IMG/VR virus record: IMGVR_UViG_2675903481_000015 | Source: a virus | Lineage: Duplodnaviria; Heunggongvirae; Uroviricota; Caudoviricetes | Direction: 5' to 3' (one strand) | DNA: 5,885 bases | Program-made: the position numbers and the translations under genes | In this document: positions 103 to 3,389 of the stretch, in pieces | Position numbering within the stretch: the first letter of the stretch is position 1 | Layout: each line of letters opens with the position of its first letter | The notes under the pieces: model-generated | Seen by the model: the letters and a program-made list of their open reading frames with translations, nothing else | Database searches by the model: none | Told to the model about the DNA's origin: nothing

Positions 103-125
103 GGCGGCGATAGCCGCCTTTTTTT
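103..125 (+). terminator. Rho-independent terminator-like hairpin (GGCGGC-GATA-GCCGCC followed by 7 T)
   Basis: Perfect 6-bp GC stem 103-108/113-118 with 4-nt loop, then TTTTTTT 119-125, immediately after the stop at 93-95. Confidence 0.45.
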
Positions 126-352
126 ACGGGTCCTCCCGGTGGGGTGGTCTGCCACGGGGCGGGAGCGGCGCGGAAAAAGGCTGGTTTTTGCATTTTCATT
201 CGTCATCATCATCTTTCTATCATATTGAATTTTAAGTGCTTTTATTTTTGGTATGTTAATTTTGCTTATTTTGCGTTCAACATACAGCGCGTTTTTTGAC
301 CTTTTTTAAAAGATATTTGCAAGATGCATGTTTAAAACATTCTGGAGCGGGT
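126..352 (+). other. Lambda-like cos region (cosQ/cosN-like GC-rich segment 126-175, then AT-rich cosB-like segment up to the terS start)
   Basis: 126-173 ACGGGTCCTCCCGGTGGGGTGGTCTGCCACGGGGCGGGAGCGGCGCGG resembles the lambda right-end/left-end junction as I recall it (ACGGGTCCTTTCCGGTG...GTTACG|GGGCGGCGACCTCGCGG). The AT-rich stretch that follows contains TTCGTCAT, also recalled from lambda cosB. Position about 180 bp upstream of a Nu1-like gene matches lambdoid layout. Recalled, not aligned. Confidence 0.5.
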
Positions 353-838
353 ATGGATCGGGAACTGAAAAATCTGATGCTGAACATTAACCAGCTGGCG
401 GCGATAGCGGGAATATGTCGCCAGACTGCGGCGGCAAGGCTGAAAAATATCCAGCCAGCCGGAGGACATGACAAGCTGAAACTCTATCGGGTGACTGACA
501 TTCTGACCTGTTTTCTTGATCTTCCCGTTCCGGCATCACTGGAAGAAATGGAGCCACACGACCGTAAGGCCTGGTATCAGTCCGAACGTGAGCGCCTCAA
601 GTTCGAACAGGAAACGGCGCAACTCATACCCGCCGATGATGTGCGAAAAGAGATGGCTATATGGGGAGAAATCGTAAGCGAGGAACTGGAAAAACTCCCC
701 AGTATTCTGGCACGTGATGCTGGGCTTAAACCGATGGCAGTAAACAGAGTGCAGTCAATTATTGACGATTTGTGTAATCTGATTATCAGCCGGATGGTAA
801 AAAATGACGTAGTGAATGAGGTCGCAAAACAGGCATGA
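353..838 (+). CDS. Terminase small subunit, Nu1 family (or a satellite-encoded TerS-like packaging protein)
   Basis: Track ORF 296-838; preferred start ATG 353 (MDRELKN...) with GGAG at 344-347. N-terminus LNINQLAAIAGICRQTAAARLKN...P.GG..K..LY matches the lambda gpNu1 winged-HTH pattern (VNKKQLADIFGASIRTIQNWQ...), and GEIVSEELEKLP resembles gpNu1 AGEIASILDGLP. Sits downstream of the cos-like site. Confidence 0.72.
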   Translation: MDRELKNLMLNINQLAAIAGICRQTAAARLKNIQPAGGHDKLKLYRVTDILTCFLDLPVPASLEEMEPHDRKAWYQSERERLKFEQETAQLIPADDVRKEMAIWGEIVSEELEKLPSILARDAGLKPMAVNRVQSIIDDLCNLIISRMVKNDVVNEVAKQA

Positions 839-1122
839 TAATGACCGAATCTGAAATACTGCGATTAATCCGCTGTGCTGGTGGAATTAGCCAGTTGGCT
901 GACGAACAGGCCGCGCAGCCGGATACAGTCACCGCTGAAAATTACGCGCGTGTGGTGGCTGAGGTGATGCGCCGTGACGGTATTGAGCTTAACGGCGTGG
1001 ATATGCGCAACATACGAACCAGAGTCCTTGAGTTGCTGGCATACCGTCGCCGTTCTCAACAACGGAGGGAGAGCGCGAAAAATACTTACCAGTGGAAGAA
1101 GCCGGAACGACTGCGGCGGTAA
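835..1122 (+). CDS. Hypothetical 95-aa protein coupled to terS, occupying the position of the large terminase gene; possibly a terL N-terminal remnant
   Basis: ATG 835 overlaps the terS stop (ATGA, 835-838); alternative ATG 841. Basic C-terminus (RRRSQQRRESAKNTYQWKKPERLRR). N-terminal SEILRLIRCAGG weakly resembles recalled lambda gpA N-terminus (SQVNRLRHFVRAGL). No ATPase or nuclease motifs. Confidence 0.4.
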   Translation: MIMTESEILRLIRCAGGISQLADEQAAQPDTVTAENYARVVAEVMRRDGIELNGVDMRNIRTRVLELLAYRRRSQQRRESAKNTYQWKKPERLRR

Positions 1123-1363
1123 CTTGCTGATATTCCCGATAACGCAAAATTGCGTTGGCTGGTGGGTGAGTTGCAGATTTGCAACTCGACCATGAAACTA
1201 CGGAAACTACCCGTAGTTTGGGTAGTAAGAGTAACACCCAGATTTTGGGGCTTACTCGCGATACCCAAATAAAGGGTATCGGTGGAAGAAATATCGTTTC
1301 TCATATGTAAGTACCGAGGGCGGAATTCCGCCTTCGGTTACTTATTGTGCTCATGCACAGGGA

Positions 1364-1423
1364 GGGGCGGGTCAAATCTCTGTACCCTGACGTCTTCAGG
1401 ACTGCCCGCCCCATCGATTTTTT
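1364..1423 (+). terminator. Long-loop hairpin with T-tract (GGGGCGGG ... CCCGCCCC, then TTTTTT)
   Basis: Perfect 8-bp GC inverted repeat 1364-1371/1405-1412 around 33 nt that holds an inner CCTGA/TCAGG pair (1386-1390/1396-1400); TTTTTT at 1418-1423. Plausible terminator for the terS transcript, though the loop is atypical. Confidence 0.3.
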
Positions 1424-1585
1424 ATACCCGCGAAAAATGAAAAACGCTTCACGCTGGTGGGCCTGATGCCGATATGGGGATCCACATAACGGATTATCCG
1501 TGATCATCCACCAGCTTCATAGCGGATAGCCGAAAAATGATAACGGTTAAGCAAAACTGCCAGCAAATTTCCCTTTTGTTTGTTA

Positions 1586-1640
1586 TTGTTCGTCGTTGTT
1601 CGTAGGGCTTCAACGAAATGTGTGGTCAGTTGTGTGGTCA
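1586..1640. repeat. Short tandem direct repeats: TTGTTCGT x2 (1586-1593, 1596-1603) and TGTGTGGTCA x2 (1619-1628, 1631-1640)
   Basis: Exact repeats read directly from the sequence, in an AT-rich non-coding stretch about 70-120 bp upstream of the junction with the thiM leader. Confidence 0.5.
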
Positions 1641-1708
1641 TTTTTGAGGTTTTTAATTCTTATATGCTTAAAAACTTATTAATTATCAACTGATAACAAA
1701 AATTAGTA

Positions 1709-1803
1709 AGAAATACCCGTATCACCTGATCTGGATAATGCCAGCGTAGGGAAGTCACGGACCACCAGGTCATTGCTTCTTCACGTTATGGCAGGAGCAA
1801 ACT
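1709..1803 (+). promoter_or_regulatory. thiM leader: 3' part of the TPP riboswitch (THI-box) plus expression platform and SD; 5' aptamer half absent
   Basis: AAATACCCGTATCACCTGATCTGGATAATGCCAGCGTAGGGAAGTCACGGACCACCAGG...GGCAGGAGCAAACT matches the E. coli thiM leader as I recall it. The preceding GGGGTGCCC...GAAGGCTGAG is missing (GTAAGA here in place of CUGAGA). GGAG SD at 1794-1797. Confidence 0.6.
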
Positions 1804-2592
1804 ATGCAAGTCGACCTGCTGAGTTCAGCGCAATCTGCGCACGCGTTACACCTTTTTCACCAACATTCCCCTCTTGTGCACTGCATGACCAACGATGTGG
1901 TGCAAACTTTTACTGCCAATACCTTGCTGGCGCTCGGCGCATCGCCAGCGATGGTTATCGAAACCGAAGAGGCCAGTCAGTTTGCGGCTATCGCCAGTGC
2001 CTTGTTGATTAACGTTGGCACGCTGACGCAGCCACGAGCGCAAGCGATGAGTGCTGCCGTTGAGCAAGCAACACGATCACAAACGCCCTGGACGCTTGAT
2101 CCGGTTGCGGTTGGTGCGCTCGATTATCGCCGCCGTTTTTGTGTGGAACTTCTGTCCCATAAGCCAACCGCCATACGTGGTAATGCTTCGGAAATCATGG
2201 CATTAGCTGGCGTTGCTAATGGTGGACGGGGAGTGGATACCACTGATGCCGCAGCTAACGCGATACCCGCTGCACAAACACTGGCACGGGAAACTGGCGC
2301 AATCGTCGTGGTCACTGGCGAGGTGGATTATGTTACCGATGGACATCGTATCATTGGCATTCACGGTGGCGATCCGTTAATGACCAAAGTGGTAGGAACT
2401 GGCTGTGCACTATCGGCGGTTGTCGCTGCCTGTTGTGCGCTACCAGGCGATACGCTGGAAAATATCGCATCTGCCTGTCACTGGATGAAACAAGCCGGAG
2501 AACGCGCAGTTGCCAGAAGCGAGGGGCCAGGCAGTTTTGTTCCACATTTCCTTGATGCGCTCTGGCAATTGACGCAGGAGGTGCAGGCATGA
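1804..2592 (+). CDS. thiM: Hydroxyethylthiazole kinase
   Basis: 262-aa ORF with SD GGAG upstream; near-identical by recall to E. coli ThiM ([32 protein letters not shown]...[18 protein letters not shown]). Confidence 0.95.
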
Positions 2593-3389
2593 AACGAATT
2601 AACGCTCTGACGATTGCCGGTACTGATCCGAGTGGTGGTGCGGGGATTCAGGCCGATCTTAAAACCTTCTCGGCACTTGGCGCTTATGGTTGCTCAGTTA
2701 TTACTGCACTGGTGGCGCAAAATACCCGTGGTGTACAGTCGGTGTATCGCATTGAGCCTGATTTTGTCGCCGCCCAGCTCGATTCGGTGTTCAGTGATGT
2801 GCGAATCGACACCACTAAAATCGGTATGTTGGCGGAAACCGATATTGTTGAAGCGGTGGCAGAACGGTTGCAACGTTATCAGATCCAAAACGTGGTACTC
2901 GACACCGTTATGCTGGCAAAAAGCGGCGACCCGCTGCTTTCACCATCGGCGGTTGCTACGCTGCGCAGTCGATTATTGCCACATGTTTCATTAATAACGC
3001 CAAACTTGCCCGAAGCAGCCGCCTTGCTCGACGCGCCACACGCGCGCACCGAACAGGAAATGCTGGAACAAGGGCGATCGCTGTTGGCGATGGGCTGTGG
3101 CGCAGTGCTAATGAAAGGTGGTCATCTGGATGATGAGCAAAGCCCGGACTGGCTGTTTACTCGTGAGGGGGAACAACGATTTACTGCACCGCGCATTATG
3201 ACCAAAAACACCCACGGCACTGGTTGTACGCTCTCTGCGGCGTTGGCTGCACTACGCCCGCGCCATACAAACTGGGCTGACACCGTACAGGAGGCAAAAA
3301 GCTGGCTTTCATCGGCATTAGCCCAGGCCGACACGCTGGAAGTTGGTCACGGTATTGGTCCGGTTCACCACTTCCACGCCTGGTGGTGA
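2589..3389 (+). CDS. thiD: Hydroxymethylpyrimidine / phosphomethylpyrimidine kinase
   Basis: 266-aa ORF; ATG 2589 overlaps the thiM stop (ATGA), indicating translational coupling. N-terminus [27 protein letters not shown] and GTGC motif are typical of ThiD. Confidence 0.95.

Follow-up and report, generated by a model that had tools for sequence, protein, structure and literature searches.

Gene content and organization of the locus

The window, by which we mean the whole 5,885-nucleotide stretch of viral (Caudoviricetes) DNA that was analysed, is identical to the genome of strain SCU-123, in which an island of ~10.9 kb lies between rcnR and thiM (locus L001). The island genes follow the order tyrosine integrase, DUF6387 protein, AlpA, Icd-like protein, DUF4222 protein, D5-type primase, HEPN protein, protease-capsid fusion, DUF1441 protein and a 93-aa protein; the last of these genes measures 282-285 nt in all related islands. 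The integrase contains the domains PF13356 Arm-DNA-bind_3 (E=4e-17) and PF00589 Phage_integrase (E=8e-17) and is homologous to P4 Int (BLASTP E=4e-14). The island AlpA matches Pfam Phage_AlpA (E=5e-16) and the PHROG 'excisionase and transcriptional regulator', and it is 45% identical to Vis, the excisionase of P4. The element shows the marks of a phage-inducible chromosomal island (PICI): a size of 10-15 kb, the genes int, alpA, primase/replicase and packaging genes, transcription in one direction and a PICI-specific att site. The features of the locus are collected in Table 1.

Table 1. Features of the window and of the att sites discussed in the text (positions refer to the window unless a locus is named)
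Feature	Position	Strand	Description
cos-like site	121-175		between the end of the capsid gene and the terS-like DUF1441 gene
DUF1441 / terminase-small-subunit-like gene	353..838	+	PF07278 E=1e-35; PHROG 141 'terminase small subunit' E=2e-56
Final island gene	841..1122	+	conserved 93-aa protein, function not assigned; PHROG 1561, E=1e-52
Conserved PICI tail	1501..1547	+	GATCATCCACCAGCTTCAT.GCGGATAGCCGAAAAATGATAACGG; common to islands with different integrase alleles
Octamer repeats TTGTTYGT x3	1576..1605	+	TTGTTTGTTA, TTGTTCGTCG, TTGTTCGTAG; candidate AlpA/Vis-like excisionase sites
TTGTTCGT x2	1586-1593, 1596-1603		period 10
Linker	1606..1618	+	GGGCTTCAACGAA; joins octamers to 12-mers, included in the block duplicated on the other arm
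Tandem 12-mers	1619..1642	+	TGTGTGGTCAGT, TGTGTGGTCATT; putative arm-type sites (P arm) for the integrase N-terminal domain
TGTGTGGTCA x2	1619-1628, 1631-1640		period 12
AT-rich spacer	1643..1708	+	66 bp from arm sites to core; most variable part of the arm
Palindrome	1683..1696	.	TTATCAACTGATAA (TTATCA-AC-TGATAA); not the core; overlaps the IHF-like site
att core	1709..1722	+	AGAAATACCCGTAT; 14-bp direct repeat at both junctions, single copy in empty sites
Truncated thiM leader	1709..1803	+	3' half of the TPP aptamer and expression platform
thiM	1804..2592	+	hydroxyethylthiazole kinase; intact
thiD	2589-3389		directly after thiM
5' aptamer half at attL	L001 9625-9677		with the thiM promoter, reads toward int
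attB			gctgAGAAATACCCGTATcacctg; K-12 empty site
attL			gctgAGAAATACCCGTATtttctc; left junction
attR			tagtaAGAAATACCCGTATcacctg; right junction, in the window
Arm tandems published as cores	L011 1051-1074, 12308-12331; L012 1049-1072, 11665-11688
TTAGTGTTTTTTG	L001 9683-9697; L013 14827-14839; L012 ~931-943

An island of this kind has already been published. EcCI224, a 10.6-kb element of strain Ecol_224, is entered with the att core AGAAATACCCGTAT at 'frmR-thiM' in Table S1 of Fillol-Salom et al. (2018; PMC6092414), and the right arm of Ecol_224 is 100% identical to the window. EcCI224, which is treated there together with other E. coli PICIs, agrees with our element in insertion site, 14-bp core, size class and the order int, alpA, primase, packaging genes; neither the arm repeats nor the position of the core in a TPP riboswitch is described in the searched parts of that paper.

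The same int/att module (int with 92-100% DNA identity, same arms and core) was found in loci L003, L004 and L006 as well as in L001 and L005, that is, in capsid-forming PICIs (capsid, portal, connector, HNH, TerS, TerL) and in classical DUF1441-type PICIs, respectively, all of them at thiM. This distribution shows a modular exchange of the integration module between PICI backbones.

Several further features were observed in the window. The cos-like site, TTTACGGGTCCTCCCGG ... ACGGGGCGG, aligns with the cos sequences of phi80 and EcCICFT073 and diverges within the cohesive-end region (GGGCGGGAGCGG vs GGGCGGCGACCT). Positions 1130-1500 are non-coding and rich in inverted repeats (including 1195-1281), with a terminator-like hairpin at 1313-1338 and, at 1364-1412, the pair GGGGCGGG/CCCGCCCC, behind which stands a run of T. 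This region gave no Rfam match, and it is conserved up to 98.7% at other PICI sites and in other genomes, in up to 7 places per genome. A minus-strand ORF of 45 aa that runs over the repeats (1504-1641) was rejected as spurious; it is annotated in some carriers only, and with differing lengths.

Right junction of the island and the att core

The original prediction had placed a junction between element and chromosome at the repeats, and the comparison with ordinary genomes bears this out. When window positions 1100-1900 were compared by megablast with 5426 complete E. coli genomes, the positions from 1709 on (thiM leader and gene) were matched in every genome and the junction was spanned by matches in only 50, the arm being carried by 76 of the 5426 (~1.4%). 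Ordinary E. coli thiM leaders begin to match at 1709, 12 bp past the palindrome, and the island is bounded on both sides by the 14-bp repeat.

The core was derived by reading attL and attR of the island against the K-12 empty site. The sequence AGAAATACCCGTAT is present at attL, at attR and once in K-12, and because the read-out of attB, attL and attR places the repeat there, the core is this 14-bp sequence and not the palindrome, so that the original prediction is not borne out with regard to the core; the 14-bp sequence is also the core published for EcCI224. The inverted repeat within the thiM-type core has arms of 6 bp only (AAATAC-CC-GTATTT), and the phoQ-type core contains a clear perfect inverted repeat, TGATAAAA-GGACATA-TTTTATCA.

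One carrier departs from this pattern: the attL core of TUM1881 (L005 ~413-426) has a substitution, AGAAATGCCCGTAT, which is absent from its attR copy. If this substitution was inherited from the host attB, strand exchange would take place to the right of core position 7, within CCCGTAT.

Tandem repeats in the window and at the opposite end of the island

Both tandem repeats and the palindrome were found where the original prediction had reported them (Table 1). The first set is accompanied by a third, degenerate octamer, TTGTTTGT, at 1576-1583, and it is therefore a triple with a 10-bp period; the two 12-mers of the window differ from each other by one base. Such tandem repetition is far beyond chance. 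Within positions 1100-1810, five exact tandem 8-mer matches with a period of <=15 were observed against 0.09 expected, a number reached in 0/1000 dinucleotide shuffles, and a single exact tandem 10-mer was present where 0.003 would be expected. In the 40.8-kb locus L001 there are only four copies of the 9-mer GTGTGGTCA, each inside one of two tandem pairs.

The repeats are also the well-conserved part of the arm. Among five thiM-type right arms of 90-100% identity, variable columns amount to 1/30 in the octamers, 1/24 in the 12-mers, 2/13 in the linker and 0/14 in the core, with 16/66 in the spacer and 3/14 in the palindrome. The integrase-specific att module starts directly after the conserved PICI tail. 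This tail is the sole part of the arm query that was matched by hundreds of genomes, at other loci, and it also precedes the arms of the islands at the IS110, tRNA-Pro and clpS sites.

A block of ~75 bp, consisting of the octamers, the linker and the two 12-mers, recurs as a near-copy at the far end of the island, 36 bp upstream of int, where the 12-mer pair is identical to that of the window; in other carriers the block copies of the two arms are almost identical to each other. Two findings had been named along with the original prediction that would refute it, and neither was made: the K-12 empty site is without the repeat block, and the opposite end has it upstream of int together with the core repeat. 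In the reconstituted attP the block copies flank the core, one ending 66 bp before it and the other separated from it by 128 bp and from the start of int by 36 bp. The 12-mers stand at -90/-78 and +142/+154, counted from the start of the core, so that repeated arm motifs distinct in sequence from the core are present on both of its sides within about 150 bp. Seven TTGTTCGT-like octamers (<=1 mismatch) were counted in attP, all on a single strand (-133, -123, -113, +45, +55, +99 and +109), against 0.68 expected. At up to 3 mismatches, attP contains no extra or inverted 12-mers such as those of P4 apart from one weak match in inverted orientation, which coincides with the palindrome and is missing from L003 and L004.

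The idea that the repeats include integrase arm-type sites finds good support here: the block recurs beside int, the integrase has an arm-binding domain and the layout matches that of the P4 arms, which by analogy makes the 12-mers putative binding sites of the integrase. Window positions 1548-1722 very probably represent the P arm of attR together with the core, i.e. the right junction of an integrated EcCI224-type PICI.

Comparison with P4, lambda and related islands

Among the closest known systems is the attP of P4, reportedly described by Pierson and Kahn in 1987. The P4 record NC_001609 annotates 12-bp 'attP arm sequence repeats' as a tandem pair on each side of a 20-bp core, and int starts 15 bp past one of the pairs. 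The likeness to the thiM-type site is considerable: in both systems a tyrosine integrase with an arm-binding N-domain and an excisionase of the Vis/AlpA type are combined with 12-bp tandem arm pairs that flank the core, one of them just upstream of the int start, and the spacing is similar (53 and 112 bp in P4, 66 and 128 bp in the thiM type). However, the two integrases are only 23% identical, the P4 12-mer ATTGGGGGCATA is unrelated to TGTGTGGTCAGT, and the P4 core comprises 20 bp in a tRNA-Leu gene, whereas that of the thiM type comprises 14 bp in a riboswitch. Additionally, P4 has an inverted copy of the repeat over the int start, none of which was found in the thiM type, and 10-bp-phased TTGTTYGT repeats beside the 12-mer pairs, present in the thiM type, are not annotated in P4. 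The targets of P4 Int and Vis used in this comparison are those of the GenBank annotation and of a secondary account (PMC7286903).

Within the E. coli PICIs the geometry is kept across integrase alleles. The distance from the P-arm pair to the core is 66 bp in the thiM type, 74 bp in the phoQ type and 71 bp in the clpS type (53 bp in P4), the distance from the core to the P'-arm pair is 128, 125 and 126 bp (112 bp in P4), and the P'-arm pair precedes the start of int by 36, 22 and 23 bp (15 bp in P4). PICIs at roxA-phoQ, at cspD-clpS and at the IS110 site have T-rich octamers in a 10-bp phase followed by GGTGTAGTTAAT x2, at both ends. In the island at the tRNA-Pro site, whose integrase shares no more than ~23% identity, each end carries a pair of 12-mers of the TTTAGTTATACG type, and two inverted copies lie upstream of int.

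When other species were scanned with the Int sequence alone, no loci were found, and a scan with an Int alignment gave nine, with 42-66% Int identity, in Raoultella, Serratia, Shigella, Xenorhabdus and Phytobacter. A tandem pair is present ~20-60 bp upstream of int in 9/9 of these relatives. Eight of them have 12-mers with a 12-bp period that share GTGT(A/G) and differ in the 3' half, and the ninth, a Serratia locus, has an unrelated 11-mer pair with an 11-bp period. The far ends of the nine loci lay outside the 10-kb flanks; thus the P-arm copies are confirmed in the E. coli loci with fetched ends and in P4 only.

The attP of phage lambda is built from the arm-type sites P1, P2 and P'1-3, IHF sites and Xis sites. 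Its logic is alike, since a bivalent integrase bridges arm and core with bending proteins between them and the sites of the recombination directionality factor (RDF) are phased direct repeats. Lambda differs in belonging to another integrase subfamily, in having 2+3 arm sites and not 2+2, in lacking sequence similarity and in carrying its Xis sites on a single arm.

The feature of the window is an ordinary P4-style attachment-site arm of an already published satellite. What it offers beyond this is a definition of the working parts of the attachment site, namely core, arm 12-mers, phased octamers and spacer, for the whole group of E. coli phage satellites. The arm architecture of E. coli PICIs is, in our opinion, worth following up, as are certain published cores that appear to be mislabelled and the division of the riboswitch, both of which are discussed below.

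Proposed assignment of the repeats to Int and AlpA

The islands at cspD-clpS combine alleles of different origin. The N-domain of their Int is 76-81% identical to the phoQ type and ~61% to the thiM type, and their 12-mer is that of the phoQ type. Their AlpA is 68-92% identical to the thiM type (84-92% in three of the four) and ~62% to the phoQ type, and their octamer is the thiM-type TTGTTCG and not TTGTTCC/TTGTTTC. Simple linkage fails to explain this pattern because the two types of repeats lie only ~15 bp apart. Judging from these natural recombinants and from the likeness to P4, the 12-mers are probably the sites of the integrase N-domain; on the same grounds the octamers may be AlpA sites, an assignment that we make more tentatively, and the allele groups behind both assignments number three to five and are related, hence not fully independent. 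A testable code would follow, in which Int reads the 12-mers and AlpA reads the octamers.

Two properties of the octamers have to be kept in mind. Sites of RDFs typically take the form of direct repeats spaced by one helical turn (PMC7498355). They are usually confined to one arm, whereas the thiM-type octamers are present on both. The octamer motif is degenerate, and the linker is conserved between the arms as well, therefore the block may act as a single composite site.

The mechanism that we propose for the thiM-type site is as follows. The N-domains of an integrase tetramer would bind four 12-mers, two per arm, as has been proposed for P4, and the catalytic domains would work on the core. 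Arm and core could be bridged by one protein owing to the AT-rich spacer, which IHF may bend at the site that overlaps the palindrome. The TTGTTYGT repeats with their 10-bp phase would be the likeliest docking sites for AlpA acting as RDF; at the int-proximal copy AlpA could also regulate int, and the window copy would be needed for recombination of attL with attR and thereby for excision of the island.

Palindrome and IHF-like site

The palindrome was rejected as a significant element: a perfect palindrome with 6-nt arms occurs in 34% of the shuffles of its own AT-rich stretch (1640-1708), and its symmetry is lost in the functional-looking loci L003 and L004, where the counterpart reads TTATCA-AT-TACTAA, so that the right half is lost and the WATCAA half is kept. 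The sole site of the arm that resembles the IHF consensus, TATCAACTGATAA at 1684-1696, has one mismatch to WATCAANNNNTTR and overlaps the palindrome. One IHF-like site is found in the core-proximal half of each P spacer, that is, in the thiM, phoQ (perfect match) and clpS types and in P4, the chance of such a site being 32% per shuffled spacer. An IHF bend site at this position of the window is plausible.

Alternative explanations of the repeats

One would argue that the repeats are mainly operators, with Int and/or AlpA autoregulating int at the near copy and the window copy being a by-product with no role in recombination. The P' copy does end 36 bp before the int start, and P4 Int and Vis each repress Pint, the int promoter (PMC7286903), which fits the int-proximal copy doubling as an operator. 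However, the distal copy has hardly changed (1/24 variable columns in the 12-mers, 1/30 in the octamers) although the neighbouring spacer drifts, its distance to the core is conserved in every allele and in P4, and it moves with the int allele onto unrelated island backbones. Besides, the roles are not exclusive, and an operator function of the P' copy belongs to the arm-site explanation. The operator sites of the original prediction are thus retained for the copy adjacent to int and given up for the copy in the window, and a mainly regulatory function of the repeats appears very unlikely to us. Another explanation concerns the AT-rich stretch of the palindrome, which could be an outward promoter or operator of the island that drives thiMD, severed from its own promoter by the insertion. 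Both thiM and thiD are intact in 5/5 of the carrier loci examined, thiD is needed for de novo thiamine synthesis, and the native promoter with the 5' aptamer half is now ~11 kb away, at attL. Nevertheless, a consensus scan found no sigma-70-type promoter, the best weight-matrix candidates reach <=4.6 bits on a scale that gives the native thiM promoter 10.4, and the stretch is the least conserved in the arm, with the palindrome lost in L003 and L004. We hold such a promoter to be highly unlikely.

Direct repeats that are short and recur with the helical period are reminiscent of iterons, and the crr region of P4, which contains 8-bp repeats, lies ~120 bp from an attP arm; the repeats could hence be iterons of the replication origin of the island, in the manner of the octamer repeats of P4 ori/crr. 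Against this, the arms are nearly identical in L001, L003 and L004, which encode a D5-type primase, and in L005 and L006, which have a DUF927 protein unrelated to it. Both ends carry the block, its sequence goes with the alleles of int and alpA, and the repeats sit at the ends of the element, far from the replication gene and not next to an initiator. We have rejected the iterons of the original prediction on account of these two unrelated replication proteins, and consider them extremely improbable. Hardly any credit can be given either to the view that the repeats are non-functional leftovers of duplication or chance matches. Repeats that are short and present in two copies are often fortuitous, and the second 12-mer of the window is one base off the first; however, the observed tandem count was not reached by any of the 1000 shuffles, and the conservation of layout and spacing across integrase alleles, genera and P4 already contradicts this view.

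Insertion into the thiM TPP riboswitch

The core that belongs to these arms is located centrally in the thiM TPP aptamer (aptamer annotated at L002 2965-3061, core at 3001-3014), and the insertion splits the aptamer in every carrier examined. With the TPP model RF00059, which has a gathering score of 54.3 bits, K-12 scores 71.2 bits, attR 33.3 bits and attL 19.7 bits, so that a complete aptamer is recognized at neither junction. A replacement of the 5' aptamer half by island sequence was ruled out, as Rfam aligns the 3' half only. The native thiM promoter and the 5' aptamer half now point into int, across the candidate sites of Int and AlpA. In the truncated leader the helix between GGGAAG and the anti-Shine-Dalgarno sequence CUUCUU still forms, and given the known mechanism of thiM regulation its persistence implies that translation should be constitutively permitted. 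Left with the 3' aptamer half alone and lacking a recognizable promoter, thiMD would be blind to TPP and would need read-through from the island.

The island targets the middle of the TPP aptamer, and it could be that its insertion leaves thiMD insensitive to TPP and dependent on read-through; taken as a whole, this scenario of consequences seems rather doubtful to us. If it were true, a vitamin operon would have been rewired by a satellite and a host promoter may have become coupled to integrase expression. A bisected thiM riboswitch is present in ~1.4% of the complete E. coli genomes (76/5426), which bears on the thiamine regulation of these strains. Literature searches on the core sequence and on riboswitches as targets of PICIs found nothing beyond the table entry of EcCI224, and we regard the split of the riboswitch as a modestly novel side observation. 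In SCU-123 the 5' aptamer half at attL differs from K-12 and the remaining carriers by two substitutions (cttctTTgtgaagg vs cttctGCgtgaagg), located at L001 9636-9637 in the region of the P3 loop.

Published att cores of sister islands

For some sister islands the table of PMC6092414 gives the tandem of arm 12-mers as the 'att core'. The 'att site cores' published there for the PICIs at yejM-luxR and at the IS110 site (TTTGTAGTTATACG... and GGTGTAGTTAAT x2, respectively) coincide with arm 12-mer tandems (Table 1), and it seems that in some cases arm repeats, not crossover sites, have been published as PICI 'att cores'. Mislabelled cores affect the detection of satellites and of their empty sites. 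The 3' end of tRNA-Pro is partially repeated in ATCC 25922 (CTCTCGTG; L011 905, 12393); this repeat lies ~61 bp beyond the P-arm pair and is a likelier core than the published one.

In islands that differ in core and integrase allele, a further short sequence, TTAGTGTTTTTTG, is found on the int side of the core at a distance of 6-20 bp; it may serve as a core-type half-site common to these islands or as some other accessory site.
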